Source: a virus
Strand: one strand, 5' to 3'
DNA length: 64,000 nucleotides
IMG/VR virus record: IMGVR_UViG_3300023171_000013
Coordinates: 2,704-66,703 of that record
Shown: in pieces, positions 989 through 63,673 of the stretch
Position numbering within the stretch: position 1 is the stretch's first letter
Layout: every line of letters starts with the position of its first letter
Program-made: the position numbers and the translations under genes
The notes under the pieces: generated by a model
Databases searched by the model: none
What the model was told of the DNA's origin: nothing
What the model saw: only the letters and a program-made list of their open reading frames with translations

Positions 989-1597
989 ATGAACAGCTTA
1001 CTAGAACAACCAGTGACTTTGCGCCTCAACTCAGCGTGGCAGGTGATCGGCTTTTCCAATCCGCGCACGGCAATCATTGCCATGACAGGTGGAGAGAAAG
1101 GCCAACGCCCCGCGCTCGCTATGGACATCATCTTCGATGAGAATGGCGAGTTTGCTTCCGCCATCCCTACAGACTGGGAGCATTGGATAAAACTGCCTAT
1201 TCGCGCAACGGATGCTGCCATCATGAGCAATCGCGGCCCTATCCGCCTGCCTACCGTGATTGTAAACCCTCGCTACTCTAGGATGCCAATGAAGCTGCCG
1301 CGCTTGACCAAGCAAGCCATCTTCGCCCGCGAGAAGGGGGTTTGTGGCTACTCAGGCAAGAAGCTGTCTAAAAACGAAGCTACAGTAGATCATATCTTGC
1401 CGCGTTCCCGTGGGGGTAAAGACTCATGGGAGAACCTTGTTCTCTGCGATAAGAGGATCAACTTCGATAAGGGTAGCCGGTTAAACGAAGAGATTGGGCT
1501 AAAGCTATCCAAGAAACCAAAAGCTCCTATGCCTATCCCTGCTTCTTCCACCATCACGCAGATCAACCACCCGCATTGGGCCTACTTCCTCAAGTGA
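989..1597 (+). CDS. HNH endonuclease (McrA-like)
   Basis: LRLNSAWQ N-terminus; IFAREKGVCGYSG...ATVDHILPRSRGGKDSWENLVLCDKRINFDKG motif. Confidence 0.9.
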   Translation: MNSLLEQPVTLRLNSAWQVIGFSNPRTAIIAMTGGEKGQRPALAMDIIFDENGEFASAIPTDWEHWIKLPIRATDAAIMSNRGPIRLPTVIVNPRYSRMPMKLPRLTKQAIFAREKGVCGYSGKKLSKNEATVDHILPRSRGGKDSWENLVLCDKRINFDKGSRLNEEIGLKLSKKPKAPMPIPASSTITQINHPHWAYFLK

Positions 1598-2214
1598 CTC
1601 CCATAAATTTCAAAAAGGTCAAGCCGTGGACAAAGAAGAAAACCAAGGAATATACCGAGGCTGATATTACGCCCATTCCTCGCAGCGATATAATCACCAT
1701 AGACCTTCCTGCTTCCGCCATTGTATTCACCGAAGATGACGGAACCCCTATGCGCGAAACCGTAGCGGTTAAACAAAGCAATATAAAGTATATCGAGTGG
1801 GACTTTAGTTTTGGCGACTTCGCAGCAGTAGACAATTTCCATATCCACAAACTACCAATAGCGGGAGCTAGAGAACTTCTACCAATTAGCATACTGAAAC
1901 CTACCTCCTACACGCTTCCATATCCAAAAACAGAATCAGGCAAACAATATTACTGCATCATGGTAAAAGCCGAGAGCGATAAGCCATCGAAATCAATTCA
2001 GGAAATCATGATTTGCGCTATTGGAAATTATAAAGTCACAGATACACCTACTCAAGCTATCCGAACTGGAAACAACGAAGCTGTATTAGATAAAGGATCA
2101 ATAATATCAGCCGCCATCGGCCACAGCTCTTTAGTATGGGAAGATCATGCACATAAAAAGATTCACTACCTAGTCCAGATTGTCCTAGAACCCAGCAAGC
2201 TCACCTATCTATGA
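1576..2214 (+). CDS. Hypothetical protein
   Basis: 212-aa ORF coupled to its neighbours; the start may be the GTG at 1594. Confidence 0.65.
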   Translation: MGLLPQVTPINFKKVKPWTKKKTKEYTEADITPIPRSDIITIDLPASAIVFTEDDGTPMRETVAVKQSNIKYIEWDFSFGDFAAVDNFHIHKLPIAGARELLPISILKPTSYTLPYPKTESGKQYYCIMVKAESDKPSKSIQEIMICAIGNYKVTDTPTQAIRTGNNEAVLDKGSIISAAIGHSSLVWEDHAHKKIHYLVQIVLEPSKLTYL

Positions 2215-2882
2215 ACGAACCCACCTCGCACATTATTATTGGCGACATCCACGGTTGCTTCCGCTCCTTGCAAGCCCTACTCGCCAAGCTACCCCATGCT
2301 AACGTCAAGTTGGTAGGCGATCTATGCGACCGAGGGCCGCGCTCCGCTCAAGTCTATCAGTGGGCCATCACCAACAATATCGCCTGCGTAATGGGGAACC
2401 ATGAGCACATGCTACTTCTTGCTCACATAGCCCACCTCGACAGCGAGCAATCACCCGAGGACGAACAGAAGAAGCAAGCTGCCAAGGAATACCTTAACCT
2501 CTGGCTTCGTAATGGAGGAACCGAATGCCTCAAGTCCTACGATCCCACTCAGAGTAAGGAATGGCACAGTGCCATCCCCAAGGCGCACATGCAGTGGATC
2601 GGATCACTTCCCACTTACTTGCTTTACCCCTTCGATAACCTGCTCATATCTCATACCGGACACGCTTATGGTGCGGACTGCATGGAGACTGCTCTATGGG
2701 CACACGGCTATCAGTTCCCCAAAGACAAATACTTCCGAATCCTAGGCCACTCAATAACCAAAGAACCTTTCATAACCAACACTTTCGCCAACATCGACAC
2801 CGGCTCTTTCTTAAAGACCGGCAAGATCACCGCCATAGAGTATCCTTCTATGAGAACGTGGAACCAAGCCAACATCGACTGA
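2211..2882 (+). CDS. Calcineurin-like metallophosphoesterase (lambda NinI-like Ser/Thr phosphatase family)
   Basis: GDIHG, GDLCDRG, GNHE, GHS and IDTG motifs. Confidence 0.92.
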   Translation: MNEPTSHIIIGDIHGCFRSLQALLAKLPHANVKLVGDLCDRGPRSAQVYQWAITNNIACVMGNHEHMLLLAHIAHLDSEQSPEDEQKKQAAKEYLNLWLRNGGTECLKSYDPTQSKEWHSAIPKAHMQWIGSLPTYLLYPFDNLLISHTGHAYGADCMETALWAHGYQFPKDKYFRILGHSITKEPFITNTFANIDTGSFLKTGKITAIEYPSMRTWNQANID

Positions 2883-3199
2883 TGAACACGAAACCTAATC
2901 TGCCTGAACTACTCGCAGACTACGAAAAAGCCAAAGCCCTAGCCATATCCCGTTTAACCAGCCTAGAGGAACTAACCAATCTCGACTTCCGCTCAGGCGA
3001 ACTCAAATCAGTGACCCCACTCAAGCCAATGAAGCTACGTTTTATTAGGGAAATGATAGACTCGGAATATCGCAATAAGCCTGCACCCGAGTATATTGAC
3101 CTACTAGTGGACGCATGGAATACCCTCCACCACCTATTTCAAGTCCACTCGGCTTACTTCTCGGCATACAAAGCAGAACAAAGAAATAACCAGCCATGA
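2882..3199 (+). CDS. Hypothetical protein
   Basis: ATG overlaps the upstream stop (TGATG); 3' part of ORF 2696-3199. Confidence 0.6.
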   Translation: MNTKPNLPELLADYEKAKALAISRLTSLEELTNLDFRSGELKSVTPLKPMKLRFIREMIDSEYRNKPAPEYIDLLVDAWNTLHHLFQVHSAYFSAYKAEQRNNQP

Positions 3200-3408
3200 A
3201 CCGATCCGAAGAGGATGCTCACGCGAGAGATGCTCAAAACGCAGTCGATGGTTTAATTGATATTATCAAAGACCTCAAAGCCGAACTAAGGGAATCGGCC
3301 GCACAACTTACAATGAGAAATGACCTTATTACGGAACTAAATGAGCGAATCCACGAGCTTGAAACTCAAGCAGCAGAAACAATCACTGCCACTATTACAA
3401 ATGAATGA
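3196..3408 (+). CDS. Hypothetical coiled-coil protein
   Basis: ATGA overlap with upstream gene; heptad pattern. Confidence 0.6.
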   Translation: MNRSEEDAHARDAQNAVDGLIDIIKDLKAELRESAAQLTMRNDLITELNERIHELETQAAETITATITNE

Positions 3409-3565
3409 AATGCCTTCCCCTATCCTTTGGTCTGTAAACAAACTAACCATAACAAAGCTATGCGATTCATCCTATCGTTTAACCGATGAAGAAGTGATCG
3501 TGGCAGACTTCATCTCATTTGAACTAGCCGTCTCTTACGCCTACGACGAATTTATCTTATAAAAC

Positions 3566-5043: not shown

Positions 5044-5265
5044 ATGACCCAGCAATTCAACCACCCGGTGTGCCTCCACGTTATCCCAACAGGAAAAGAC
5101 CAGATCATCCACCTAGCCCATAGCTCCTGTCACTGTGAACCTAAACAGGACGGAGATAACCGACTCTTCGCCCACCAAACCCAAGACCGTTTAACCGAAG
5201 TCATAGAACAAGCAGGGATACGTGATCCTGATGTTCACTGGATAACCGTAGCAGAACCCCTATAA
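5044..5265 (+). CDS. Small His/Cys-rich hypothetical protein
   Basis: HVIP...H...CHCEP...FAH pattern. Confidence 0.6.
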   Translation: MTQQFNHPVCLHVIPTGKDQIIHLAHSSCHCEPKQDGDNRLFAHQTQDRLTEVIEQAGIRDPDVHWITVAEPL

Positions 5266-5847: not shown

Positions 5848-5935
5848 CGAAAAATTTCCAGCCGGTGAGCAATGTTCATTTTTACCTAGCATAGCCTATA
5901 TCGCATATAATTTACTTAATTACGTAAGTGTATGT

Positions 5936-6895
5936 TTAACCGGCATCGGGCAATCGCCATCCACGATAAGACATAACGTTGTGCCCACCAGAACGCTTTC
6001 TTCCTATCATCTTATAGAACATACTCTTATCTCCACCAATCCACCACATTGCCTCATACCGAGACTCAAACTTAACTGTATCTCCATCGGGCGATATAAG
6101 AGTAATAGGAATTTTAGGATTAGGCGTGCCCTTAATCTTCGGAGCCTTTTGCGGTAACGGTGCCTTATTGCACAAACAGTTCTCCTCGGTCTGTGACCAT
6201 CCCTTGCTCTGATGCTTCGCATCCCGCTCCATCCTCGCCAGATCAGCCGGACATCCCATAACGGATCGAAAAATTTTCCTAGACACATACGAGTATCGCT
6301 TACCCTCCGGTGAATAAACCACATGCCTAGGCGTAGATTCCAAAGCCCATCCTCCCGCATGAAGGTCTCGCCCACTGATAACCGCATAAACCTCCTTTAC
6401 CCACAGCCCTTTCTCCTTGGCGAAATTTACGCGGCTCACTACCTCCACAACTTCCAATCCATCAGGAGATACTAAGCGAGCATGTTTAACCCTTGCCGCC
6501 CACCACGACTTAAAAGCCTCCTTATGTTCCGCGTTAGGCCCACCAAACCCTGTCGTGAACACATTGTAGCCCACAGATGGATTACAACTGTCTAGCTCCT
6601 GAATCCAGAACGTCTCCCTATCCCTGACGCTACTCTTAACACATGTCTCCACAATGGCCCACTCCCAGTAGCCAATTTCAAAAACCTTAGCGTCCGACGC
6701 TATCCCCACCGACTTATGGTATCCACCTTTTATACCGTGAAAATGAAACCTAAGCCTACGCTTCAAATCAGTTGTCCCACCAACATACAACTTACCATTT
6801 GCCGAATTACGTAAGCAGTAAACAGCACAAATCCCCTTGGCGGGAAACGACTTACTATTAAAACCAGTAAATAAAAATTTCATATACCCCACCAC
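5936..6895 (-). CDS. GIY-YIG homing endonuclease
   Basis: AVYCLRNSANGKLYVGGTTDLKRRLRFH...RETFWIQ...YN catalytic module plus repeated SPDG/SPEG...GW DNA-binding modules. Confidence 0.88.
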   Translation of the reverse strand: MVGYMKFLFTGFNSKSFPAKGICAVYCLRNSANGKLYVGGTTDLKRRLRFHFHGIKGGYHKSVGIASDAKVFEIGYWEWAIVETCVKSSVRDRETFWIQELDSCNPSVGYNVFTTGFGGPNAEHKEAFKSWWAARVKHARLVSPDGLEVVEVVSRVNFAKEKGLWVKEVYAVISGRDLHAGGWALESTPRHVVYSPEGKRYSYVSRKIFRSVMGCPADLARMERDAKHQSKGWSQTEENCLCNKAPLPQKAPKIKGTPNPKIPITLISPDGDTVKFESRYEAMWWIGGDKSMFYKMIGRKRSGGHNVMSYRGWRLPDAG

Positions 6896-7852
6896 TCAAA
6901 GGCATAGGGGGTCTAAATCAAGATAATTATTTATAGGTAGTGGGCATGTTTGTGAGAGAGGGGATTGGGCAAGGGGGCGTTGTGATAAGACGGGGGGCAA
7001 CTAGCGGCGGTGGTTGATGGGGTGGTGGGGTCTGCATGCCTGATGCTTGCGCCTTCCCTGCGTGCTACACGAGCCTTCGCCCATCCCCATCGGTCGGAGT
7101 AGACCTAATCCCTATTGTGCGATGCACTTACACTAGGCAACGCGAGCGGAGCGCATGTGCATCTATGGGAGGAGAACCGAGTCTTTTTTACAAAGATTAG
7201 GCTAGGCTAACATTGTTAGGAATGGCTAATGGTAGATAGACAGGTCTGTATAGTATCAAAGACCCCTTGCCATAGTTCGTTTCCCGTTACGCCCTATTTC
7301 GTTTAACCGCTCCGCTTGCCTTGCTTTGGATTGCATTGGACTAGCTCGCTCCGCTCGCCGCTTAGTTTGTTTTCTCCTCTATGGTTAGAGGCTATCGGCT
7401 ACCTGATGACTTCGCTTATCTGTCTGTGCTGTCTTCTGTCTCTCGTATTCGTTCTACTGTTCTTTGAGTCCTTGGATAGCCGCGGACCGGTCACGACTTA
7501 ACCCGATCAATCCCCATCAATCCTCCCTCTCTTTGCTCCTTCCAGATCATTTCAAGGCCTATTCCTTCCCATTCTCCCGCATAATCCCCCGTCTCAGCAG
7601 GATACAGCACGCTACAGACGCCTTCCGGCTCCCTATTTCCGGTCATTTCAGGCTTTAGCGCGCCGATAATCAATCCCAAGCCGCCCATCCCTTTCCTTGT
7701 TTTCGCCTTACTTTGTGGTAAAATACTTTATAGTTTAACGCGTTAATATCTCACAATTTAAATACGCATCTAAAAATAATTGGAGTATGAGCTTGACCAT
7801 AATATTCCAATATTACACCTAAGAACTCCGCTAGCTCCCTACTCTCTCACCT

Positions 7853-8056: not shown

Positions 8057-9142
8057 ATGAACGAAGAACTCAACAAAGCCATTGCAGACATTGCCTTAAA
8101 CGCAGTCCGAGCCGGATTGACCGACGGAAAAATCAAGATCAACTTCCCCGCTTCCGCTATTCGTGACCTCGTAAAGAACGAAGCCCCCGCCATCGCCAAG
8201 AGCGAAGCCGAGAAGGCCGTTGCCTCCGTCAACAAGGCACTTGAAGCCGTCAAAATTGACCTTCAAGCCCTTCACCTCACCCACGCCGAACGGATTGCCA
8301 ACCTTGAGAAAGCCGCCCCTCAGTCCGCTTGCCAAGAAGTTAAGATTATCACCCAGCAGAAGACCAAGAAACTTGAAGGGCTTTTCCACGCCCAGTTTTC
8401 CGAAGTGGTTAAACGTTTGCAGGTAAATGCCCAGATCAAGCGCGGGGTTTGGCTCCATGGCGCAGCCGGAGGCGGCAAGACCACCCTTGCGATTCAAGCC
8501 GCCGAAGCTCTGGACGTTAAGTTTGTGCCCATCTTTGGTTCCCCCACCCTCACCGATACGAAGCTCCTTGGCTACACGAACGCAGGCAATGGTGAGTTCG
8601 TTAAAGGTTCTATCTATGACGCCTATGCCTGCCCCGAAGCCCACGAACGCGGCGCATTGCTCTTTATTGACGAGGCAGACGCAGGGGAATTCATGCTGGT
8701 TTTGAACGCCCTACTTGCCAACGACTACTACCGATTTAGCAATGGCGAGGTTTTACATCGGCCCAAGCGTTTCTACATCCTCGCAGCCGCCAACACCCTC
8801 GGCACTGGCTCCCAGAATGGCTACCGCCGCGCGACTTTGGACTTTGCCAGCCGCGACCGCTTCACCCCTTACCAGTTGAACTACGACGAAGCCCTTGAAA
8901 CCAAGGTTGCAGGCAATCCAGAGGTAAGTAAATGGGTTTTCAAAGCCCGCAAATGGATTTCCGAGCACATCCAAGGCGGCAGCCTCACCCCACGCACCCA
9001 CTTTGCCGTAGCAGCCTACCACGCCGCAGGCATTGCAGGCGCCGACGCAGAAGCGATTGCCCCCACGCTATCGCCTGACAACTGGAAAGCCCTAAAATCG
9101 GCCTGCCCAGCCTTCCCCGCACTAGCCGCCGCAAGAGCTTAA
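8057..9142 (+). CDS. MoxR/CobS-like AAA+ ATPase
   Basis: Walker A GAAGGGKTT, Walker B LLFIDEAD, AAANTLGTG sensor I, LDFASRDRF arginine finger. Confidence 0.9.
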   Translation: MNEELNKAIADIALNAVRAGLTDGKIKINFPASAIRDLVKNEAPAIAKSEAEKAVASVNKALEAVKIDLQALHLTHAERIANLEKAAPQSACQEVKIITQQKTKKLEGLFHAQFSEVVKRLQVNAQIKRGVWLHGAAGGGKTTLAIQAAEALDVKFVPIFGSPTLTDTKLLGYTNAGNGEFVKGSIYDAYACPEAHERGALLFIDEADAGEFMLVLNALLANDYYRFSNGEVLHRPKRFYILAAANTLGTGSQNGYRRATLDFASRDRFTPYQLNYDEALETKVAGNPEVSKWVFKARKWISEHIQGGSLTPRTHFAVAAYHAAGIAGADAEAIAPTLSPDNWKALKSACPAFPALAAARA

Positions 9143-9146
9143 TCCC

Positions 9147-10172
9147 ATGTCCGCTAAACTACCAGATGGGTGCATTGAGCCGCTAGACTTCCTGCACGAC
9201 GTTGCCGCCCCGTGGCGCACCCACGAAAAGCGCATGGCACTTGCTAAAGCTCAAGGCTCAGGCAACCCAACGCAGGCTTGCGCCAATTGGGAAATATACG
9301 CCGACAATAACCCTCCCCACCCTTGCAACCTCATCCTATTGCCTGACCTTGCCACCGCTTGCTCTGTTTTCATGCAAGGCAATGGCAAAGCATATGGAGG
9401 AGGATTTACCTATAACGCCGAGGAGGTTATTGCCCACGTCACCGGCCAGAAATGCCACATCAATCCCGACTTACTCACCCGCATCACCGCATTATCTGAC
9501 CGTTTAGCCGATGCTGTCCGAGAGATGCAGCCCACCCTTGCAGCAACCCCTAAGCACTACCGCGCAGAGATGGGAGATATTTGGGACGCGGGATTGATTG
9601 CAGAAGGAGACGAACGCCCTTGCTTTGCGCCTCGCTTCGACGGACCAGAGCCAAGCAAGGGACAAGGAAACGGAGCCTACCGAATCCTTATCAACACCGA
9701 TACTAGCTTTGGGCGCTCCGACTCTGAAAATCTCGCAACCACGCTTTGCCTTTGCAATGTCCTCTCTCACTTTGGCCCAGTTGAGATTTGGACGCAGCAA
9801 GGCTGGCTATCGTCAAATAACACAAACCCCACCTCTCGCTCATCTGGTATTGTTTGTTTTCGAGTCGGCGAACTGGGATCAATCAACCCGTCAGCCCTCG
9901 CGTTTTGGCTTGGCTCCCCATTCCGCGACAGTGTTTTTTCCTATGTCATCAGCCGCCAGCTAGGACGCTCAACATCAGGTTGCAGCCAGTCCCCCGCAGT
10001 CCCTTGCGACTGGTTTAGCTCTAACGCCACCGGAGCCAAGCAGCCCAGCGGAGAAGAGGCTTTGAAAGACCCCAACAGCCCCGCAGGAAAGGCAGAACTC
10101 AAAAACCTCGCAGCCTACCTTGTCACCGTCTGCGAGGGGATCATCTACCCCGCCGCCACCGAAAACGTTTAA
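9147..10172 (+). CDS. Putative vWA-like partner of the AAA ATPase
   Basis: Adjacent to the MoxR-type ATPase; strand RILINTDTSFGRS (degenerate MIDAS), then a helix and a GPVEIW strand. Confidence 0.55.
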   Translation: MSAKLPDGCIEPLDFLHDVAAPWRTHEKRMALAKAQGSGNPTQACANWEIYADNNPPHPCNLILLPDLATACSVFMQGNGKAYGGGFTYNAEEVIAHVTGQKCHINPDLLTRITALSDRLADAVREMQPTLAATPKHYRAEMGDIWDAGLIAEGDERPCFAPRFDGPEPSKGQGNGAYRILINTDTSFGRSDSENLATTLCLCNVLSHFGPVEIWTQQGWLSSNNTNPTSRSSGIVCFRVGELGSINPSALAFWLGSPFRDSVFSYVISRQLGRSTSGCSQSPAVPCDWFSSNATGAKQPSGEEALKDPNSPAGKAELKNLAAYLVTVCEGIIYPAATENV

Positions 10173-10190
10173 CCGAATCCATATATCATC

Positions 10191-10763
10191 ATGAACAACA
10201 ATGACACAATAGAATGCAGCGTGACCTTAACCGAGGAAGACGCTCCGCCAGCTATTCAGCAGGTAATCACTAAACCTTACGCTCCGCTCCCCGCCCCCAC
10301 AGGCGGCGACCGTGAACAATGGCTCTCTCAAGCCGCCCAACTCATCCACGGCAAACCCCTCGCCATGCCGATTTCCTACGGGTTCGGAAGAGGCGGCACC
10401 CGCAGCGCAAAAGGCTACTCCATCCACCAAGACGACAGCGGCAGCCCACAACTCTTCATTCACCCGACCACCCGTAACGCCGCAGAGCTTTGCGCACGCA
10501 TCATGCAAGCAAGCGACGCAGAGCGGACATCATGCCTAATTTACCCCGAAACAATGGCCGCAGTATACGCCGCTCAACTGCCCCCATTCCCCACCGAAGG
10601 ATTGCCCCCCACGAGCAACGAGAACAAGGACGGAATTCGGCAGATCAAATGCCTTTGCCCTTCGTGCGGTTTCACCATGCGGACTAGTGCCAAATGGATT
10701 GCCAAGGGACTACCAACGTGCGCTTGCGGCACCCAAATCATTTCAACCCTCACCACTGTTTAA
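10191..10763 (+). CDS. SprT-like phage protein with C-terminal zinc ribbon (HExxH absent)
   Basis: REQWL, ISYGF, LFIHP and KCLCPSCGFTMRTSAKWI...PTCACG motifs. Confidence 0.6.
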   Translation: MNNNDTIECSVTLTEEDAPPAIQQVITKPYAPLPAPTGGDREQWLSQAAQLIHGKPLAMPISYGFGRGGTRSAKGYSIHQDDSGSPQLFIHPTTRNAAELCARIMQASDAERTSCLIYPETMAAVYAAQLPPFPTEGLPPTSNENKDGIRQIKCLCPSCGFTMRTSAKWIAKGLPTCACGTQIISTLTTV

Positions 10764-10921
10764 CCGATGCACCTTGCCAACCTTCCCCCCCGCTATCGCC
10801 CCATCGTAAACCAAACTCCAACCAACAAAGCCCCTTCCATTCCGTTCGTTCTACTTATCGCCTCCCCAGTCTCATTTTTCGCCGCTTGGCTCATCCTTAA
10901 CCTTTTCAACTAATACCACAC

Positions 10922-11428: not shown

Positions 11429-11623
11429 CCAACCCCACAAAAACAAATACCATGAACACAAGAGCCAACAAACACGCCCGAGCAGCCATCACCGCCCATT
11501 TCATCGGGCCGACCAACACCAAGCCCGCCCGCATTTATATGTCCCGCAAGCCCTGCAAAGATTGGGCAGCCAGCTAACCCAAAACCCCCCATTGGCCGGA
11601 GTCACTAAGGCCTGTTTAACCCA

Positions 11624-11864: not shown

Positions 11865-12278
11865 ATGCCTAACCACTCTTTCGGTCTGCGCGTGGGGTTT
11901 AGTAATCGCTCAACTCACCCAATGAAAAACGACCTACACGAAATAAAGAAGCAACCCAGCCAGCCAGAGCCAACCGCTCAGGCTATGCTCGCAGCTATCG
12001 CCATCAACACAAAGACTGATGCGATTCTAAGAGAAATGGGAGTCCCCACCGGAGAAATGGACGCCGAGTGCCACCGTTTAACCGCTCAGATGATCGACGA
12101 ACGCGCAAACATTCCCATGCTCCTTGGCGCACTCGAAAGAAGCAAAGCTGTCCAACAAACCCAACTTGCTTTTTGGGAGAAGTGCCACGCATCCACAAAG
12201 ACAGACTTCGCAAAGAACATGGCAGAGCTTTGCCGCCTATCCATTGCCATCATCGACACATCCACGTCCCTAGAATGA
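11865..12278 (+). CDS. Hypothetical protein
   Basis: ORF in the early run; the start may be downstream (MKNDL). Confidence 0.55.
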   Translation: MPNHSFGLRVGFSNRSTHPMKNDLHEIKKQPSQPEPTAQAMLAAIAINTKTDAILREMGVPTGEMDAECHRLTAQMIDERANIPMLLGALERSKAVQQTQLAFWEKCHASTKTDFAKNMAELCRLSIAIIDTSTSLE

Positions 12279-12460: not shown

Positions 12461-12753
12461 ACGCAATAGAACACCAGACCTACGAATCCCCTGCCTCCTC
12501 CACTATTCGCACCCTCGAATACCTGTTCACCAAATACCAGAACCAACTCGACACACCCGCAGAACACACCATCACCCTAAAAACTACCGACCTTCGCCGC
12601 ATGGCAGACGAAGACAAAGCCAACGCCCTACGCCTCTATAACCAAGGCAACGGGCTTTCGCCTCAAGCCATAGCGGACGAGTTAGGCTTTAGTTGTGCCG
12701 CGATCACGGGATTCCTTCACCGCGTAGGAGCACGCAAGCGTTTAACCAAATGA
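12457..12753 (+). CDS. Helix-turn-helix protein
   Basis: GLSPQAIADELGFSCAAITGFLHR. Confidence 0.75.
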   Translation: MNAIEHQTYESPASSTIRTLEYLFTKYQNQLDTPAEHTITLKTTDLRRMADEDKANALRLYNQGNGLSPQAIADELGFSCAAITGFLHRVGARKRLTK

Positions 12754-13046: not shown

Positions 13047-13270
13047 ATAATCCAGAAGAACAAGCACAGACTCAGCTAAACAGTAACGAAAACGCGCCAG
13101 CGTTTAACCAACAAAAATACAATAAGATGTGCGCAGACCGCATTGATTTCTGTGTTTACGTCCAAAACGTGGTCAACCCATCGCGCATATCCACCGGACA
13201 GGAGCCTATGAAACATCAAGATGCTTGGGCCTGCTATAACCTTATCACCAGCGGAATCTTTCGCAACTAA
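13043..13270 (+). CDS. Hypothetical protein
   Basis: Coupled ATG ORF. Confidence 0.55.
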   Translation: MNNPEEQAQTQLNSNENAPAFNQQKYNKMCADRIDFCVYVQNVVNPSRISTGQEPMKHQDAWACYNLITSGIFRN

Positions 13271-13729: not shown

Positions 13730-14046
13730 ATACCGAAACCAACCAAAAGAAATTCACCGTCCCTGTTACTCAATTCATACGTCCTCATCGCGGCATACGT
13801 GAGGAGACTACCGAAATCAGCGAGGCACTACGCCCCAAGTTTGAACTCATGCAGAAACTCAATTGCCGACTAACCGCAGAGGTTCTGCCTACTGGACACG
13901 TATCGCTTTGTATCGAGCAGCCTTCTCTTGGCGATGTGGATTGCCGAATTGCAACCAACGGCCCGCAAGTTCAGGAGAAAATAGAGGCTATGCTAGGCGA
14001 CTTCACAGAAGAATCGTTTAACCAATTCAAGGAGGTAATGAGCTAA
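13726..14046 (+). CDS. Hypothetical protein
   Basis: Coupled 106-aa ORF. Confidence 0.65.
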   Translation: MNTETNQKKFTVPVTQFIRPHRGIREETTEISEALRPKFELMQKLNCRLTAEVLPTGHVSLCIEQPSLGDVDCRIATNGPQVQEKIEAMLGDFTEESFNQFKEVMS

Positions 14047-14438: not shown

Positions 14439-14784
14439 TCCGCAGGACAACGCCCACCTGCTACGCAAAACCAATGCAATCAAGTCAGTCCGACCCCACA
14501 AAAAAACCCGCCTCCTTTTACGGACAGCGGGAGTGTTTAACCACGAAGAAGGGAGATAAACCAAACATGAACTCATTAAGTATAATAAACTCAATTGATT
14601 CCCCCCGATGCGGAACCTATATCGAGTGCCAATTTGGCAGAACTCGACGCTGTTCTAAAACAGACGATCAATGCGCGTCATGCGCTTTGATTCAGTCCGA
14701 AATGATCATTACTGCACTTAGCGAGGAACTAGATCGCAGAGAATCAAGACAATCTATAGTCGAAGTCGAAATAGATCACGGAGC

Positions 14785-15234: not shown

Positions 15235-15443
15235 TTAATAACCTCCATCACCTTAATATCAGAACCAATGTCCACTGTCTGTGCCTGCTTGAACTCTATA
15301 AGATCATCCTTGGCTTCATTAAAAGTAGAGCGAGCCTTTGGTTTGATATTAAAGAAAGCCAACCCATCAGGAGAATGCTGGGCATAGAAATACACCCATT
15401 CACCACCAATTTGTTTAACCACCACTCTATAACGAGGTTTCAT
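15231..15443 (-). CDS. Hypothetical protein
   Basis: Coupled ORF. Confidence 0.55.
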   Translation of the reverse strand: MKPRYRVVVKQIGGEWVYFYAQHSPDGLAFFNIKPKARSTFNEAKDDLIEFKQAQTVDIGSDIKVMEVIK

Positions 15444-39178: not shown

Positions 39179-39188
39179 GGAATAAAAA

Positions 39189-42623: not shown

Positions 42624-42668
42624 AGTATGGCCAAAACTCATCCATTAATTGGTTAAACAGTCAACCCA

Positions 42669-51090: not shown

Positions 51091-53140
51091 TTGGCTGGAC
51101 TCCTTGATTTGATTGCTGCGCCATAGCTTCCGCCGCTTGGTTGAGCGCCTTTTCGTATTCTGAAATCTTGTGCTTCGTAGGGTTCACTTCGTCCTTTGGC
51201 CATGTCTTCTTAGACACACCCTGCGCGTAGTGGGCCGCGAAGTGTTGCAGAGCAAGTTGAGCCACATTCAACTTACCGCCCTGAATTAGATTAGGAATAC
51301 CCGCCTCAACCACCTGACCATGCACCCAGTCATTATCCTGCGGCAGCACCGGCACAGCCATTCCTTGCATCATAGCGGAGTTTTCAAGCGTCTGTTGGCT
51401 CTGCGCCAATAGAACCTGAGATTGGTCGCCTTCTGGCAGCAATACGTTCTCCGCAAAGTGCATCCCGCCCGCAGCCTCAGCTTGCACCAGTTCAAGCGCA
51501 CGTTGGTTATACAGGGGATTACCTACCTTGCTTGCCGCAAATGCAGCCCTCTGTTGTGCTGCGAACGGGGTAAAGTCGGTAATCGTCTGGATCGTCGGCT
51601 GCGTAACCAAAAGCAAAATCTCTTCATCCGTTAGAACCTCGCGCAACTTAGCACGCAGTTTCTTAGCCACGTCATCAGGCGAATCAGGATCGGTTAAACG
51701 AATAGTGATCGTGTTAATCAACTGAGCTACCTGCATCAGCCAATTATCCAACAATGCCTGTTGAAGCTCTTGCTCCTTCTGTATGTTAGCGTTTACTTGC
51801 GCGGCCTTAATGTCGGACGGAGACAAGGGAATCGGCGGCACATACGCACCAATCTTTTCCTGCGCCAATCGAGTCATCTGCACATCCAGAGACATATACG
51901 CCTCAACGTTCTGAGGAAGTGCCGCCGCAGCACCGTTATACATTCCACCCGATACAATCATCATCGTATCGTTGACGGTAAGTTTAACCGCATTGGCGTC
52001 CTTGGCGTCAGCCACCTGAATCTTTAGCTTGTTCTGGTTACGCAGGTTATCAATGGAGTCGTTGCGAATCTTCTCAACCTGCACGGACATATCGTAAAGA
52101 ATCTGTCCACCACCCCAGCTACCCTGAATAGTTCCATCACCGTAATCAAACACGAGTGGAACACATACGCGCTCCATCGTTTCATAAGCGTCTTCCTTTT
52201 CATAAAGGAGTGCCTTTCCCTCACCCTTAGCCTCACGCAAAAGAATGTAGTGACTTACCTTGCCATCATATTCTCGTGCAAAAAGATGATAGGTTTGGAC
52301 CAGCTTAGTTCCCTTCGCATAGGAGTAAGACTGGGTAGATTGACGAATCAGTTCCTCATATGAACGCTGTTCAGAATTACTTGAGTCAGCCGGAGCAGGT
52401 GCAGAATCATTCACTGCCTTAACCACTCCCTCTTCGTTCCAGTTCTTTAATCCTGCATCTTTGTTTTTCTTAAGGAGAGCCAAGAGTTCACCCGGCTTGT
52501 AGTCCCACTTCACACAGAAGAATGCAATGTCCTCATCCATGATTTCCGTGCCTGATGGGACAAACCCCTTATCCATGCGAATCAGAGACGGACGCCATTC
52601 GTATTGATCGAAGTATGCCGCGTATCCCACACCAAAAATACCTACCTCACGAGCCAACCCGCGAATAAAGAAATTCCACTTCTTCCAGCTACGGATAGCT
52701 TCCGTTACTTGCGTTCGGAAATACTGGGTCTTTTCGATTCCGTTAGGCCAGCTAATCGGAAGCTGTGAAGCAGTCAGATACTTCGCCTGCGCCACCGGCA
52801 TATAGAACCTAGGGGGAATCTTACCGCACTCAGTTGAAAGGAAACCCGTAGAGATGTTCGTCTTCCATGCCTTACCTTGATTCTTTAGTGTGCGAGAATT
52901 ATAGGGACGATCCCCATTCAGCTTTGCTGTGATTTGTGCCGAATGCCCTACCCCCTTATCCCAGTCTTGCACCAAGCGTTCACAAATATCAAAGGCTTGG
53001 CTCGCACTTGTTATAACGCGCTCTGCCTCTAGCTTTCCACCTTCCTTCACGTTAGGCGAGTTCCCCATGTAGTTGGGATCGTCAACGTCCTCTTCGTCGC
53101 CAAGAAAATCAGGTTTCATATATAGGGAATTAGCTGCCAA
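51083..53140 (-). CDS. Portal protein
   Basis: ~680 aa, first gene of the head module, Gln-rich helical C-terminus; probable ATG at 53119. Confidence 0.7.
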   Translation of the reverse strand: MAANSLYMKPDFLGDEEDVDDPNYMGNSPNVKEGGKLEAERVITSASQAFDICERLVQDWDKGVGHSAQITAKLNGDRPYNSRTLKNQGKAWKTNISTGFLSTECGKIPPRFYMPVAQAKYLTASQLPISWPNGIEKTQYFRTQVTEAIRSWKKWNFFIRGLAREVGIFGVGYAAYFDQYEWRPSLIRMDKGFVPSGTEIMDEDIAFFCVKWDYKPGELLALLKKNKDAGLKNWNEEGVVKAVNDSAPAPADSSNSEQRSYEELIRQSTQSYSYAKGTKLVQTYHLFAREYDGKVSHYILLREAKGEGKALLYEKEDAYETMERVCVPLVFDYGDGTIQGSWGGGQILYDMSVQVEKIRNDSIDNLRNQNKLKIQVADAKDANAVKLTVNDTMMIVSGGMYNGAAAALPQNVEAYMSLDVQMTRLAQEKIGAYVPPIPLSPSDIKAAQVNANIQKEQELQQALLDNWLMQVAQLINTITIRLTDPDSPDDVAKKLRAKLREVLTDEEILLLVTQPTIQTITDFTPFAAQQRAAFAASKVGNPLYNQRALELVQAEAAGGMHFAENVLLPEGDQSQVLLAQSQQTLENSAMMQGMAVPVLPQDNDWVHGQVVEAGIPNLIQGGKLNVAQLALQHFAAHYAQGVSKKTWPKDEVNPTKHKISEYEKALNQAAEAMAQQSNQGVQPIA

Positions 53141-56152: not shown

Positions 56153-56488
56153 ATGAAGCTCATAATCGCAGGTGGCAGAGACTACGAACTCGACGGAGCC
56201 GACTACGACAAGCTAGACGCGATCAAGGGCATTACTGAAATTGTTTCAGGCGGAGCCACGGGCGCAGATGCTTGCGGAGAATTCTATGCCGGTGTAAACA
56301 ATATTCCGGTTAAACGGTTTCCTGCTGATTGGGGTCTTTACGGTAAAGTCGCTGGTCCTATCCGTAATCGTAAGATGGCAGATTATGCGGACGCTGTTGC
56401 CTTGTTCAAAGGAGACAAAGGAACAGCCAATATGCGTGCAGAGGCACAACGCGTAGGCTTAATCATCTACGACTTCACCTCCACATGA
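56153..56488 (+). CDS. SLOG-family protein (DUF2493/YspA-like)
   Basis: IIAGGRDY, IVSGGATGAD, PADW..YGKVAGPIRN and KGTANM motifs. Confidence 0.88.
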   Translation: MKLIIAGGRDYELDGADYDKLDAIKGITEIVSGGATGADACGEFYAGVNNIPVKRFPADWGLYGKVAGPIRNRKMADYADAVALFKGDKGTANMRAEAQRVGLIIYDFTST

Positions 56489-57533: not shown

Positions 57534-57775
57534 ACACCTACCTACTTATCATCTGCGCCGCGATCCTCGCAGTGTTCATCCTTTGCCTACTCGCCTACCG
57601 AATGGGCCATCGCCACGGCGTAATGGATGCAGACAAGTTTGCCCACCAACAAGGATTCAAACGCGGCTACGACACAGCTTGGGTAGATCGTCAAATCCAT
57701 GACGCCAAACAGAGGGAACTCCGCACAGGCCGTTGCCCACAAGGACGCTTCACGAAGAAGCCCCAAATTGGTTAA
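57530..57775 (+). CDS. Small membrane-anchored protein
   Basis: N-terminal hydrophobic helix; GxxxGY repeats. Confidence 0.6.
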   Translation: MNTYLLIICAAILAVFILCLLAYRMGHRHGVMDADKFAHQQGFKRGYDTAWVDRQIHDAKQRELRTGRCPQGRFTKKPQIG

Positions 57776-57778
57776 ACG

Positions 57779-59498: not shown

Positions 59499-61405
59499 AG
59501 TTCTAGGTTATCCTTACCATTTCCTTCCCCGCAAATAGAATCCGGCTCATCCACCGTTTCCTGTTTAACCGATTCAGAGTCTTGTGAGGTATGCCGAGAA
59601 TCAATCTGCTCCACCATACCGGGTAAAACATGCCCCCTTGTCCTGACTAACTGGACACACTGAATCACACTGTCTGCTTCGTCACAGCTACGTTGATTTC
59701 TCGCCTTATACTCATCCTTGCTCTCCACCTTCATAGTTGCGTTTTTCGCATACCTGAATCGGCGAGAACTCAACTGGACATTGATCGGAGACGAAGGAAC
59801 TACAGGGTTAATCACAATAGCCCCCACAGTTGGGTTTAACCACTCACGGAAGGCAAACCACATTTCAGAGCTTATCCCTTGGAAACGATTAGACGCAGGC
59901 TCTTGGTCTTCTGAAAGCACCATCAGGTCTGTCGCACCATCACCCCAGTTGATACCCATGATCTTCCCCCAGTATTTGGTAAGGTGAGAGAACGTGCCAA
60001 GTCCATTACCGGACTTATCCACTACCACCCACTCAGGAGCAATCCCCAGCATCTTGCAACGCCCAGTGATTTCCTCGCTCATCTGAATAGAGTCATAGGA
60101 TTTCTCCATCTGGATAATCTGGTGAATCTCCAAGACGTGACGCGGCTTCTTCTTCCCCGCGCTCGTGCGATCCAAGTAGTCCTCATACTTCCCATCCTGT
60201 CTTCGCCAGCCTTTAGCCAGCCCCCATTTGAAGACAGTCATCTGTGCCGTGTCCGCTCCTTGGAACGCTAGGTCCACACTTGCTCCCATCGTCGGCTTAC
60301 CGAGCCACACAGGTTCACCGCGTGCCTCAGTAGTCCACGTTGCAGGAATAATCGTATTCGCACTACCCTTAACAGGTGGCCAACCACGGCAGAAGCAAAA
60401 ATATGAAGGGGAACTATCTGCACCATCACCCTTTAGGTAATTAAGAAATCCCTCGTAAGTCTGAATGCCGGGATAGATTTCCTTCTTCGCCAGAACATTC
60501 TCCGACTGCGCACCATCTAGGCGCGTAACATGCCACCCCTTCTTGCTCTCCCACTCATAGAGTTTATCCAAGTCATCCTCAATCCATCCATGCATAGGCT
60601 CTGCCATTTGCACAACCAGTTTGCTCATATCCTCGGGGTTAAACGCCAACGCAATCTTAACGTGATCCTTCCCCTTGATTGACCCCTTGATGGATTCAAA
60701 GTCCGTGAATGGACCAACCGGCCAATTCTGTGTTTCATCCCCTAGCACGCGAAGCCGTGACATGAACCCGAATCGAGGATGCTCAGTCTTGCGAACAGGC
60801 TTTGGCTTAAACCCCTTCAAGTCACCCGTAGAACTAGACGAGTGTTTAACCGCAACCCCGTGGAATCCAAAGTAAGGTCCGGCATCCGTCATCCCGATAA
60901 ACAGATCATGCTCACGGTAGGTAATATTTTGCTCGTCGTTATCCGTAATTGGAACCGCCGCAGCCTTGAGCAATGACCAGATATGCGCAAAAAGATTTGT
61001 CTTCAAGTGGCCCTCGTCTCGGGAGATAACCTTGATCGTCGTAAAATAAGGGTCACGAATCCAGTCCAAAAGCATCCAAGCTCCTGCGCTATAAGTCTTT
61101 GAGGATGACGCAGCACCTTGCAAGAGAATGAGATTATGGCTACTAAGAGATTCAAATACTCTACGCACAAACATCGGCTCCACGTTGAACATGGTATTGC
61201 CCCACAGGAGGGTAGCCGCTAAAAGGTAATCGTCATTATCCAGCAAACGTTGCAGGAATGCCCTCACGATAATCTTAGCCTCGGCATACTGCGCAACCTG
61301 CCCCTGAACTTGCGAGACGTAAAGAATCGCGTTAGCCGCATCTACCCATTTATCCTTCCCCTCAGCTAGCAGGGAATGGATGAACTTAACTTGGTCGTTT
61401 GTCAT
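59495..61405 (-). CDS. terL: Terminase large subunit
   Basis: Walker A GAASSSKT, Walker B VLGDE, FNP motif, RNase H-like VDLA..GAD, VVDKSGNG and DEADS motifs. Confidence 0.88.
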   Translation of the reverse strand: MTNDQVKFIHSLLAEGKDKWVDAANAILYVSQVQGQVAQYAEAKIIVRAFLQRLLDNDDYLLAATLLWGNTMFNVEPMFVRRVFESLSSHNLILLQGAASSSKTYSAGAWMLLDWIRDPYFTTIKVISRDEGHLKTNLFAHIWSLLKAAAVPITDNDEQNITYREHDLFIGMTDAGPYFGFHGVAVKHSSSSTGDLKGFKPKPVRKTEHPRFGFMSRLRVLGDETQNWPVGPFTDFESIKGSIKGKDHVKIALAFNPEDMSKLVVQMAEPMHGWIEDDLDKLYEWESKKGWHVTRLDGAQSENVLAKKEIYPGIQTYEGFLNYLKGDGADSSPSYFCFCRGWPPVKGSANTIIPATWTTEARGEPVWLGKPTMGASVDLAFQGADTAQMTVFKWGLAKGWRRQDGKYEDYLDRTSAGKKKPRHVLEIHQIIQMEKSYDSIQMSEEITGRCKMLGIAPEWVVVDKSGNGLGTFSHLTKYWGKIMGINWGDGATDLMVLSEDQEPASNRFQGISSEMWFAFREWLNPTVGAIVINPVVPSSPINVQLSSRRFRYAKNATMKVESKDEYKARNQRSCDEADSVIQCVQLVRTRGHVLPGMVEQIDSRHTSQDSESVKQETVDEPDSICGEGNGKDNLEL

Positions 61406-62001: not shown

Positions 62002-62308
62002 CAGCTAAGTTTCTGACAGCCTGCCCAAAACCTGTCAACGGCCAGCATCAAAGTATCCATCCCGCGCATCACTGATCTTCGCGGCCCTAACCATCTCTGA
62101 ATCACCAATATGCTTCTTAGCCCTTCGATTGGCCTTACCCAACTGAGAAAGCCGTCCGACTTTACGGGGTGGCTTGTTGAAATAATCGTAGTCCTTTTGG
62201 TTGTATTTGCTCACGGTGAATAGTTGCAACGAATGAATAAGGGCGGTCAAGCTAGTAAACCGCTTACTTCCTTGCCTCATTTACCGAGGCGCAAAGAATC
62301 CAGAGCGA

Positions 62309-62503
62309 ATGAAAAACAACATGCCATTAACTCGTGAGGAAAAGTTAGCTTCGCCTAAGCGGCTATTTATTTTCTTTCGTGAAGATGGATTCTATCCCGT
62401 GATATTGCCATCAGCTACCGTTGCCGACAACGCAGAAATCAACCACGGAACGCTGCGCGTTGAAGACGCCATTACTCACGAGGTTGTCTGGTCAAATCAG
62501 TAA
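62309..62503 (+). CDS. Hypothetical protein
   Basis: First ORF after the promoter box at 62262. Confidence 0.55.
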   Translation: MKNNMPLTREEKLASPKRLFIFFREDGFYPVILPSATVADNAEINHGTLRVEDAITHEVVWSNQ

Positions 62504-62514
62504 ACTTTCCACCA

Positions 62515-63213
62515 ATGAAAATCACTAAAGAAGGAATCGCCGTCATCGAAACCGATACGCGGCACATCAGCAAATGGGTCGAGCAACATAAACGTCTCGA
62601 CATCCAAGAGGGGCAAATTCTCCCTTGGCTCAAGAACGTGCCGGAAGGAGGCGTATGCATCGACGCAGGAGCCTTCATCGGAGATACAGCCCTGACCATG
62701 GCGAAGCACGTTGGCTATGATGGAGTAGTAATCGCTATTGAGCCAAATCCCGAGGCTTACGAATGCCTCAAGTATAACATGGAGCACAATGAAATCATGT
62801 CGGTAAATACCCTTACCGTGAATAAGGCCATTGGCCCAGCCGAGGGAGAACCAGCCACACTGATGAAGGATACCAATGCAGGCGCATCTTGGCTATCTCG
62901 CCACGGATCAGGTGGACTCTACACAATGCCACTGGATAAGATTTCCGAAGGTCTGGTTAAGGGGCGTGTCCACTTTATCAAGATCGACGTAGAGGGATGG
63001 GAGGTTGAAGTGCTGAAATCCGCACAAGAAATCCTCGCCCGCGACAAGCCCGACCTGCTCATTGAGGTAAACCACGGCGCACTTGAACGCCAAGGAGCCA
63101 CTATGAAAGACATCACTGATATTCTTTTAGCTCACGGCTATCAATGGGGAATCACTGATTCTTCAATCAAATACACCGATCCCCAGTTCGATATTTTCTG
63201 CACAACCAAATAA
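62515..63213 (+). CDS. FkbM-family methyltransferase
   Basis: IDAGAFIG, AIEPNP, FIKIDVEGWEVEVL and LLIEVN motifs. Confidence 0.92.
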   Translation: MKITKEGIAVIETDTRHISKWVEQHKRLDIQEGQILPWLKNVPEGGVCIDAGAFIGDTALTMAKHVGYDGVVIAIEPNPEAYECLKYNMEHNEIMSVNTLTVNKAIGPAEGEPATLMKDTNAGASWLSRHGSGGLYTMPLDKISEGLVKGRVHFIKIDVEGWEVEVLKSAQEILARDKPDLLIEVNHGALERQGATMKDITDILLAHGYQWGITDSSIKYTDPQFDIFCTTK

Positions 63214-63217
63214 ATTT

Positions 63218-63673
63218 ATGAACGAACAAGACGAAGCAAAGACATTTCACGCAGCCCAAGCATTCACCAACGTAGTTTTCAACTACTCCATGAGTGCTCA
63301 CGGCTCCACCCGTAACAAGACAGGACGTGAGGCAGCAGACTCCTTCTACACCGCGCTCATTGATGCAATTGAGTCAGCCCGCAAAGTTGGCCGCGATGAT
63401 ACGCTAGCTAGTGAATCACCATTCTCCTTGCTGGAAGCAGAGCTCCTTACCCTGCACGCAGCATTATTTGCGTTTAACCAGTTCAGCCCGATTCCATTAA
63501 ATCAAATGATCGAGCTTTCCAATGGAGCTTTCCAGTGTGTAAACAAGGTTATAGCTGACCGCGAGGCACAGGGAATCCATGGAAAGATTGACCCCGAATT
63601 CGTATTATGCAAAGGAGATAATGGAGAAGTATGTATGGGCGTGCGACTTAGGGATAAGGCAGAGAGCGATTAA
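63218..63673 (+). CDS. Hypothetical protein
   Basis: 151-aa ATG ORF. Confidence 0.6.
   Translation: MNEQDEAKTFHAAQAFTNVVFNYSMSAHGSTRNKTGREAADSFYTALIDAIESARKVGRDDTLASESPFSLLEAELLTLHAALFAFNQFSPIPLNQMIELSNGAFQCVNKVIADREAQGIHGKIDPEFVLCKGDNGEVCMGVRLRDKAESD

Follow-up and report, generated by a model that had tools for sequence, protein, structure and literature searches.

A sharply defined DNA word dispersed along the genomes of two uncultured phage lineages, possibly the site of a DNA-processing activity

Introduction

Dispersed short motifs are rare in phage genomes, and nick sites are the best known of them. Chi is an asymmetric word of 5 to 8 nt, enriched in the host and skewed towards the leading strand, that is read by a translocating enzyme (RecBCD or AddAB). 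The DNA uptake sequences (DUS) of Neisseriaceae and uptake signal sequences (USS) of Pasteurellaceae are exact words of 9 to 12 nt, present about once per kb on both strands; the genomes of the competent hosts are saturated with them, inverted pairs at terminators are common, and they also occur in the phages of those hosts. The stoperators of Cluster A mycobacteriophages are tens of asymmetric sites of about 13 bp, spread genome-wide and also within genes, oriented with transcription and accompanied by the repressor gene. HIP1 is a palindromic octamer iterated far above chance in cyanobacterial chromosomes. Here, we analyse the octamer GTTTAACC, YGTTTAACCR with its flanks, which is dispersed along a 64-kb stretch of viral DNA. 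This stretch (the window) corresponds to bases 2704-66703 of an IMG/VR virus contig of 66,703 bp, estimated to be 97% complete and called G000 below.

The nick sites of phage tf are 14 in number, lie at TACT/RTGMC and are all on the top strand, across two convergent gene sets; 11 of the 14 are in the left half, near-variants of the site are few, and a similar placement is described for PaP3, LUZ24 and phiMR299-2 (PMC3517423, PMC11780129). In the Rembedalsseter cluster (61 phages), WACTRTGAC averages 9.0 copies per genome, against 0.7 expected, in coding and noncoding DNA (PMC3517423, PMC11780129). In the published nicked phages, as these two papers describe them, the motif is on one strand only, 4 to 14 times per genome, and no function has been assigned to nick sites in about 50 years (PMC3517423, PMC11780129). 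What is unusual in G000 is a density of about 0.8 copies per kb, which is beyond that of the published nick motifs, the use of both strands, measurable selection and spacing, and the recurrence of the word in a second lineage.

Results

The word is sharply defined and enriched beyond composition and codon usage

An exact count gives 53 copies of GTTTAACC in the window (36 on the plus and 17 on the minus strand), and every one of the 53 positions and strands listed in the original prediction, which was made from the letters of the window, matches this recount. The whole contig of 66,703 bp holds 54 copies (37 plus, 17 minus), and the reversed control word 3+1. Dinucleotide shuffles (n=100) gave 1.58 +/- 1.19 copies with a maximum of 5, and an order-3 Markov model gives an expectation of 2.56. 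Shuffling synonymous codons (n=300) gave 8.6 +/- 1.9 copies (maximum 16) and shuffling codon order (n=300) gave 5.4 +/- 1.1 (maximum 10), both of which overestimate the expectation because they retain the motif's own codons and the intergenic copies. A loss of enrichment under codon-preserving shuffles had been set beforehand as what would speak against the signal; the enrichment survives them, with 54 copies against 5 to 9. The dinucleotide, order-3 and codon-preserving nulls together rule out an artefact of composition or codon usage.

The copies in the window are listed here as exact matches to GTTTAACC in window coordinates; "stop" means that the motif supplies the stop codon, and G001 is a relative described below.

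1479..1486, minus strand: copy
1767..1774, minus strand: copy
2952..2959, plus strand: copy, starts the run of 26 plus and 3 minus
3477..3484, plus strand: copy
5189..5196, plus strand: copy
5934..5941, plus strand: copy; its complement is the stop of the minus-strand gene 5936-6895
6484..6491, plus strand: copy
7301..7308, plus strand: copy, outside the called open reading frames (ORFs)
8407..8414, minus strand: copy
10167..10174, plus strand: copy; stop of gene 9147-10172
10758..10765, plus strand: copy; stop of gene 10191-10763
11614..11621, plus strand: copy
12076..12083, plus strand: copy
12740..12747, plus strand: copy
13102..13109, plus strand: copy
14016..14023, plus strand: copy
14535..14542, plus strand: copy
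15160..15167, plus strand: copy
15413..15420, plus strand: copy
16087..16094, minus strand: copy; stop of the minus-strand gene 16089-16340
16806..16813, plus strand: copy, exact in G001
17280..17287, plus strand: copy
17648..17655, minus strand: copy; stop of the minus-strand gene 17650-18504
18243..18250, plus strand: copy, exact in G001
18598..18605, plus strand: copy
19231..19238, plus strand: copy
21485..21492, plus strand: copy within the giant LPD38 gene
21722..21729, plus strand: copy within the giant LPD38 gene
23783..23790, plus strand: copy within the giant LPD38 gene
24231..24238, plus strand: copy within the giant LPD38 gene
24687..24694, plus strand: copy, ends the run of 26 plus and 3 minus
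28438..28445, minus strand: copy, exact in G001
29395..29402, minus strand: copy, exact in G001
30877..30884, minus strand: intergenic copy, not kept in G001 (insertion there)
33495..33502, plus strand: copy, exact in G001
34241..34248, minus strand: intergenic copy
37541..37548, plus strand: copy
37845..42645, no strand: motif-free tail-spike block, 0 copies in 4.8 kb, near-zero GC skew
42651..42658, minus strand: intergenic copy, left arm of an inverted pair
42677..42684, plus strand: copy, right arm of the inverted pair
45146..45153, plus strand: copy; its complement is the stop of the minus-strand gene 45148-45966
46441..46448, minus strand: copy
47196..47203, plus strand: copy, exact in G001
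47964..47971, minus strand: copy
49088..49095, minus strand: copy, exact in G001
51692..51699, minus strand: copy, exact in G001
51982..51989, plus strand: copy
56308..56315, minus strand: copy
57770..57777, minus strand: copy; its complement is the stop of the plus-strand gene 57530-57775
59563..59570, plus strand: copy
59834..59841, plus strand: copy, exact in G001
60637..60644, minus strand: copy
60844..60851, plus strand: copy
63472..63479, plus strand: copy

The motif YGTTTAACCR is sharply defined. Each of the 24 single-mismatch variants of GTTTAACC that were tested occurs 0 to 4 times; GTTTAAC is found 58 times and followed by C in 54 of them, and TTTAACC is found 60 times and preceded by G in 54. 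Over the 54 copies, the base at position -1 is C in 33, T in 16, A in 3 and G in 2, and that at +1 is A in 25, G in 24, C in 4 and T in 1, so that the pyrimidine before and the purine after the word that had been claimed are each present in 49 of 54. Beyond these two positions there are only weak base preferences. The word is a near-palindrome (GnTTAAnC) and not its own reverse complement, and the two neighbouring words that are true palindromes are found 1 and 3 times. Among the full-text literature matches listed, GTTTAACC is undescribed as a dispersed phage motif and appears in primers and oligonucleotides, with the qualification that supplements may hold motif tables; one such match, in PMC13373217, is an unrelated operator oligonucleotide.

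Copies ignore reading frame, are conserved in position and avoid one another

Most copies lie inside genes and four are intergenic; they occupy all the allowed reading frames on either gene strand, which extends the several frames noticed at first, and the same seven gene ends at which the word had been seen to supply the stop codon were recovered among 109 greedy ORF calls. Relative to the gene that holds them, copies are on the same strand, on the opposite strand or at a boundary in 18/26/10 cases in G000, 15/14/7 in G001, 4/9/4 in G430 and 2/6/1 in G431 (the last two belong to the second lineage). Since the word occurs in every frame and on either strand of genes, it cannot be a protein motif, an RNA signal, a promoter or a terminator, nor does it follow the orientation rule of stoperators. 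A promoter is also ruled out because no partner element is conserved within 20 nt on either side of the copies and most of these are intragenic.

The relative G001 has 64,108 bp and 54% GC; its portal-like protein is 82% identical to that of G000, and nucleotide identity is about 72% across 19 kb. It has 36 copies (16 plus, 20 minus) and a single control word. Within the blocks aligned by BLASTN, 9 of the 17 G000 sites recur unchanged in G001, whereas 9.3% of all 8-mers do (P=6e-6), and the reverse comparison gives 9 of 15 G001 sites kept against a background of 9.5%. Lost sites differ by one to five bases, mostly one or two, hence the turnover of sites is by point mutation. A closer relative, known from a 5.5-kb fragment (G002, 92% in the portal-like protein), has 4 copies.

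Gaps shorter than 200 bp are depleted: G000 has 1 where 7.9 would be expected (P=0.002, and P=0.0003 in a region-aware test), and four motif-rich genomes together have 3 where 13.4 would be (P=0.00015). It seems that a second nearby site adds nothing, as for a function exerted by coverage along the DNA, and this short-range repulsion argues against both an independent mutational drive and cooperative clustered binding. The densest region, before 14.8 kb, has no homologue in G001 or in more distant relatives, hence the high density is not tied to conserved genes. The copies are strongly non-random and under purifying selection, and the claim of a selected DNA signal is well supported by the sharpness of the word, its indifference to frame and strand, the conservation of its positions and the spacing between copies. 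A sequence-specific factor would then read the exact asymmetric word of about 10 bp, YGTTTAACCR, and selection would keep copies at about one per 0.8 to 2 kb, unclustered.

The only close pair in the window is inverted (42651-42684: GGTTAAAC, 18 nt, GTTTAACC), with starts 26 bp apart, and is placed in a 27-bp gap upstream of a tail-spike gene. Such a pair might form a weak hairpin or mark a special site, for instance a terminus.

Density and strand vary along the genome

The early, plus-strand genes at 2.9-14.8 kb carry 1.26 copies per kb (14 plus, 1 minus) and the minus-strand genes at 14.8-26.0 kb, including the giant one, 1.25 (12 plus, 2 minus). Density is 0.50 at 26.0-37.8 kb (2 plus, 4 minus), zero in the tail-spike block at 37.8-42.6 kb, and 0.72 to 0.79 beyond 42.6 kb (8 plus, 8 minus). 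The split of 26 plus to 3 minus copies across 2.9-24.7 kb, on which a claim of regional polarity had been based, exists and persists through the flip of gene direction at 14.8 kb, with the strands mixed elsewhere. It is the best window in a scan statistic, for which a permutation over all windows gives p=0.057; a runs test on strand order is not significant, and there is no comparable polarity in G001 and G430. Regional strand polarity is therefore real in G000 and statistically borderline. A polar site of the kind of Chi or KOPS (FtsK orienting polar sequences), as first suggested, is still a candidate, although the left-arm bias of 26:3 is borderline and not conserved.

These data bear on the main alternative to the reading that we prefer, one that we consider slightly less likely than it and well below an even chance. 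Here a host enzyme, a translocating helicase-nuclease (RecBCD or AddAB, or a defence nuclease), would read the word as a Chi-like "do not degrade" or self signal, and any phage of that host group would profit from spreading it along both strands. Near 25-28 kb lies a common point that is faced both by the plus-strand run (2.9-24.7 kb) and by the minus-strand copies (28.4-34.2 kb), copies on both strands fit a permuted or two-ended entry, and the short-range repulsion suits a processive reader to which a second nearby site adds little. The borderline polarity and its absence in G001 and G430 weigh on the other side, as does the fact that the enrichments of Chi known from phages fall far short of 20-fold.

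The motif-free stretch at 37,845-42,645 has P=0.02 at mean density and is also without the GC skew of the genome. Both features are as expected for recent import, and the tail-spike block was probably imported recently. Copy-free regions had been claimed for this block and for three HNH genes; the block indeed has no copy, whereas the HNH identity of two scanned inserts is unconfirmed, since the plus-strand inserts at 27328-28038 and 42908-43630 matched no Pfam family. Neither insert has a copy, but together they span only about 1.4 kb and the lack is not significant. They are similar plus-strand genes that interrupt minus-strand operons, and tblastn matches them to the same loci in the relatives G010 and G011, so that they look like mobile inserts. 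On the plus strand, all 2-kb bins of the window have a negative skew, regardless of gene direction, and the skew is weakest at 38-44 kb; it is also strong in G001 and absent from the other relatives and the second lineage.

The word recurs in a second phage lineage

Relatives at about 50% identity in the portal-like protein are not enriched: G009, G010, G011, G012 and G013, three of which are circularly assembled genomes of 68 to 69 kb, hold 4, 7, 2, 0 and 2 copies. Searching IMG/VR for pairs of flanked copies with a spacing of 450 to 480 bp gave 79 loci and exposed a second motif-rich group of phages, in which the control word occurs 0 to 1 times each and which includes three smaller contigs besides the following:

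G419, 20.4 kb: 10 copies
G420, 16.2 kb: 12 copies
G429, 24.6 kb: 9 copies
G430, 42.1 kb: 17 copies (9 plus, 8 minus)
G431, 25.8 kb: 9 copies

This lineage encodes a primase-helicase, a Sak annealing protein and structural genes unlike those of G000. Among cultured phages, podophages with the labels Planktothrix or Synechococcus are nearest to it (about 34% identity), and weaker matches include Pelagibacter, Roseobacter and many Pseudomonas phages, among them Bruynoghevirus (for a structural protein). The pyrimidine at -1 is present in 15 of 17 copies in G430 and 9 of 9 in G431, with a weaker purine at +1. G430 has 15 of its 17 copies in the first 27.2 kb, which hold the early, replication and giant genes, and 2 in the 15-kb structural block. 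Comparison of G000 and G001 with the second lineage by tblastn and phmmer found three shared items only: the LPD38 region at the C-terminus of a giant protein (about 27% identity), a methyltransferase of the FkbM type (26%) and an AAA_5 ATPase, the last with G000 alone. As the word is common to two lineages with almost no shared genes, the search for its reader narrows to a handful of genes or a conserved host enzyme. Reading by a host enzyme gains from the identical word, with the same Y at -1, in two lineages without shared structural genes, and from the closer relatives of G000 that are without the word, as expected if they infect other hosts; it is at odds with the G430 structural block, which is nearly site-free though diverged from G431 like the rest of the genome.

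A second IMG/VR scan, with a spacing window of N250-280, found only local clusters inside one gene and no genome-wide enrichment. Contig ends fall within 10 nt of a site in 1 of 16 cases (G420) counted by eye, which is not significant. The idea that each relative owns an octamer was rejected: the words of loci L144 and L138 are collagen-like triplet repeats, and the candidate GGCGCCGG in L139 is not unusual under the order-3 model. These collagen-like Gly-X-Y repeats lie in presumed tail-fibre genes (L144:200-1900 and 6990-7230; L138:4600-6100) and mimic enriched octamers. G009, G010 and G011 have a fuzzier and weaker word, AAWCGCGGC, in 26, 21 and 10 copies against about 2 expected, and throughout the genomes of the family C hardly ever precedes CGCGGC, so that CCGCGG is in effect avoided. 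Other phages show other words. In a viral locus of 39% GC (L372:1-19668), the palindrome TGATATATCA is scattered over 19.7 kb in 31 copies, of which 14 are outside called ORFs, and this element looks regulatory. Locus L427 (OL906435.1, 1-50000), named Planktothrix phage Pag-Yong1 and of 68% GC, contains hairpin-like words with GGTTCAG / CTGAACC as their core, in about 16 to 21 copies, and, like G000, a large polyvalent protein and an AAA ATPase and VWA pair.

Host genomes and restriction avoidance

The bacterial genomes sampled are a small set of known species; at the density of the phage, a host genome would hold thousands of copies. In a genome collection, at least 120 loci have two close flanked copies; the matches listed span all the major phyla, no taxon dominates among them, and Planctomycetota contribute 9 of the 120 loci listed. 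Such paired-word scans are weak because phage sites avoid close spacing. Counted by single word, 401 genomes of Pseudomonadota reached a maximum of 152 flanked copies per 5.5 Mb, 201 of Acidobacteriota a maximum of 120 per 7.6 Mb (about equal to the control word), and five of Planctomycetota stayed at control level; five of Cyanobacteriota had 189 to 482 plain words per 5.9 to 7.9 Mb, with 244 to 582 for the control. By the paired-word pattern, a weak test, 401 genomes of Bacteroidota were not enriched, and the AAGGAG ribosome-binding sites frequent in the phage argue against a host of that phylum. No enriched genome was thus found among 612 counted by single word and 401 by the weaker pattern.

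Pirellulaceae were considered as hosts and rejected, since the word there is embedded in a longer local repeat, YGTTTAACCGCGTGGGCAT, and counts over complete genomes stay at the level of the control. This repeat of about 18 nt recurs in several Pirellulaceae genomes (L021, L055, L046) and holds the phage word by coincidence only. Two copies are often found 36-40 bp from each other, or 70-110 bp in inverted orientation, and the CAT at the end of the repeat may be a start codon on the opposite strand.

It had been suggested that the word is a motif of the host, similar to HIP1 or to an uptake sequence, which finds no backing in the small sample of genomes searched. The corresponding explanation for the phage, that an uptake or HIP-like motif found throughout the host genome is passively reflected in the phage by way of recombination or repair bias, could account for a word common to unrelated phages, and the density of about 0.8 copies per kb resembles that of uptake sequences in competent hosts. 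We nonetheless consider it the least probable of the explanations: 1) no saturated genome is among those searched; 2) short-range repulsion is unlike an independent mutational drive; 3) one-mismatch neighbours are not depleted; 4) no integrase or lysogeny gene was seen among the scanned proteins of G000; and 5) the word is asymmetric, unlike HIP1. The same searches weaken the case for a host enzyme, as no genome of Pseudomonadota, Acidobacteriota, Planctomycetota or Cyanobacteriota that was searched comes near the density of the phage.

Avoidance of restriction sites differs between the lineages. GTAC is observed 1 time against about 260 expected in G000, 5 against about 247 in G001, 104 against 162 in G430 and 85 against 100 in G431, and the counts for AGCT are 253 against 260, 247 against 247, 0 against 162 and 0 against 100. 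Moreover, ACGT is absent from G431, CTCGAG is absent from all eight genomes (G000, G001, G430, G431, G009, G010, G013 and G432), dozens of 6-bp palindromes are absent, and G000 is without all four NGATCN palindromes though GATC occurs 190 times. These profiles indicate that the two motif-rich lineages probably have different hosts or meet different strains, which argues against one shared host and hence against a reader that this host would supply. Restriction pressure this extreme would, in turn, make the double-strand ends that a Chi-like signal would protect.

A bolder proposal is that the word is a portable anti-nuclease or self code, a spaced mark on both strands that a translocating helicase-nuclease of an uncultured host clade would read and that unrelated phages under heavy restriction would have acquired convergently, or else that it marks nicking of both strands at intervals of about 1 kb. 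We think this rather unlikely. If the former were true, it would be the first strong phage-borne Chi-like system outside model bacteria.

Candidate readers encoded by the phages

Two genes shared by the motif-rich genomes and, as a separate observation, a SET-domain gene kept among relatives are these:

20277-25955, minus strand: polyvalent protein of 1,892 aa with a C-terminal LPD38 domain (Pfam)
62515-63213: FkbM-type methyltransferase gene (profile scan)
28958-29803, minus strand: SET-domain protein within the structural gene block, kept in G001 and G011, with weak tblastx matches to other viral contigs

The FkbM-type gene has homologues in the five motif-rich genomes tested (58% identity in G001 and about 26% in G419, G430 and G431, E ~1e-10) and none in six motif-poor ones (G009-G013 and G432). 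This association could be taken to favour a base modification, in which the word is the target of this methyltransferase, or of a domain of the giant virion protein, and copies are kept as epigenetic marks; homologues of the LPD38 region are indeed found in giant proteins annotated as DarB-like or N6-adenine methylase. The FkbM-type enzyme is rejected as reader, since none of 80 other viral loci with homologues (24 to 52% identity) is enriched, the maximum being 3 copies per 20.7 kb and a single locus having another strong octamer. Its profile search against solved structures finds FkbM and weak Trm5-type matches and no DNA methyltransferase, and in L372 the gene adjoins a DUF6492 homologue, which suggests glycan chemistry. 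It is also the sole methyltransferase among about 50 G000 proteins scanned, none of which belongs to a DNA methyltransferase family; this counts against the early idea of a modification target. G432 has an LPD38 homologue and only 1 copy of GTTTAACC, the targets of a modification need not be enriched, and these phages evade restriction by avoiding sites, not by modifying them. A modification target is accordingly very improbable in our view.

The LPD38 counterpart in the second lineage is a protein of 2,853 aa (L259:6188-14749) that also has an ART-PolyVal ADP-ribosyltransferase domain. Matches to the LPD38 region in cultured phages (n=52) are the giant virion proteins with the annotations given above, and since none of the 52 is in a phage of the T5, phiKMV or LUZ24 type, LPD38 was rejected as a link to nicked phages.

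A further option on the side of the phage is a DNA-binding protein of its own, which could be a repressor of the stoperator kind, organise the genome or serve as a roadblock. A monomeric reader would fit a word that is exact, asymmetric and about 10 bp long, the sites are conserved and confined to one clade, and G000 encodes many small early proteins without assigned function. The orientation of the sites is not tied to transcription, they are spread rather than clustered at promoters, the motif is kept in G001 although the densest region (before 14.8 kb) is without homologues there, and no small protein except the FkbM-type methyltransferase is common to all motif-rich genomes. Stoperator-like sites, as first proposed, find no candidate binder common to both lineages, and we judge a phage-encoded binding protein of any of these kinds unlikely. 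From the shared genes, no convincing phage-encoded reader emerged.

Provenance and other gene content

Matching DNA was found in sequencing runs labelled leaf litter metagenome, where one 59-kb contig of run X1, which may be the source of the DNA, covers the stretch; a second study (run X2) contains pieces of a relative that are 90 to 99% alike. Both runs consist of assembled contigs, which carry no information on ends, nicks or modification, and runs X3 to X5, with small shares of the DNA, are no guide to habitat. Cultured-phage records (n=50,697) gave no nucleotide match to the contig and no protein match to the portal-like protein of 650 aa; the DnaB helicase of G000 is less than 30% identical to that of any cultured phage, and its matches in the ESM Atlas are viral clusters only. 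Pfam and PHROGs scans named few genes overall: HNH (989-1597), GIY-YIG (5936-6895) and PD-(D/E)XK (17650-18504) proteins, the last a nuclease, a metallophosphatase, the AAA_5 ATPase and DnaB, as well as the SET domain, a tail collar, a pectate-lyase/GDSL tail spike, DUF6492 and the FkbM-type methyltransferase. Four tRNA genes are found at 80-477 and 63905-63979, for Ile(TAT), His(GTG), Arg(TCT) and Glu(TTC), the first of which is unusually long (91 nt).

Discussion

Our tentative reading is that GTTTAACC is the recognition site of a DNA-processing activity of the localized-nick kind, although we put it clearly below an even chance. The sites would be targets of a site-specific activity travelling with these phages, most like the nickase behind the "localized single-strand interruptions" of T5, phiKMV-like and LUZ24-like phages, and would represent a variant with far more copies, on both strands, for which a 9-bp word about 13-fold enriched offers a precedent. 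A number of arguments count in favour of this reading. First, the left 23 kb carry 1.26 and 1.25 copies per kb, against 0.5 to 0.8 elsewhere. Second, the strand bias of the left arm (26:3) is unaffected by the converging genes at 14.8 kb, just as the nicks of tf keep to one strand across convergent gene sets. Third, the sites of G430 are also concentrated (15 of 17) in its first 27.2 kb. Fourth, a structural protein of the second lineage has weak matches to Pseudomonas phages, including Bruynoghevirus.

Several observations weigh against nicking. The strand splits are 37/17 in G000, 16/20 in G001 and 9/8 in G430, against a single strand in the published nicked phages, and the copy number is 4 to 6 times that of tf. 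No nickase was identified, and the HNH and GIY-YIG genes of G000 have no counterpart in the second lineage by phmmer. Restriction avoidance differs between the lineages and yet their word is identical, and an identical word in phages of different probable hosts is more easily explained by a conserved host reader.

Either outcome would have consequences. If the reader were a nickase, the known range of nicked phage genomes would be widened; if it were a host nuclease, the word would be a new Chi-like signal and would provide a sequence handle to assign uncultured soil phages to their hosts.

Comparison with known systems

Among the systems described, HIP1 differs in being a palindrome, which GTTTAACC is not; it occurs 0 times in G000, G001, G430 and G431, and the five cyanobacterial genomes were not enriched in the phage word. 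Uptake sequences differ in that G000 has a single inverted pair and no saturated genome is among those searched, and GTTTAACC is presumably distinct from the uptake sequences of Neisseriaceae and Pasteurellaceae. Stoperators follow transcription, whereas the orientation of the G000 copies ignores it (18/26/10, and 15/14/7 in G001), and no repressor is evident. Chi resembles the word in that its benefit is of the coverage type and could be common to unrelated phages of one host group; differences are the lack of an enriched host among those searched, the weak polarity of G000 and an enrichment much stronger than is known for Chi in any phage.

By analogy, the closest published precedent, and the one that the word most resembles, is the nick-associated motifs of T5, phiKMV-like and LUZ24-like phages, which were not among the mechanisms first suggested. 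G000 departs from these in having 54 copies on both strands (37/17) and a word that recurs in a lineage with other structural genes. The likeness lies in 1) a short, asymmetric and exact word, more than 10-fold enriched and with few near-variants; 2) its presence in both coding and noncoding DNA with no rule of frame; 3) positions that are similar among relatives; 4) copies concentrated in one part of the genome; and 5) a strand that, in the left arm of G000 only, stays constant where gene direction flips.

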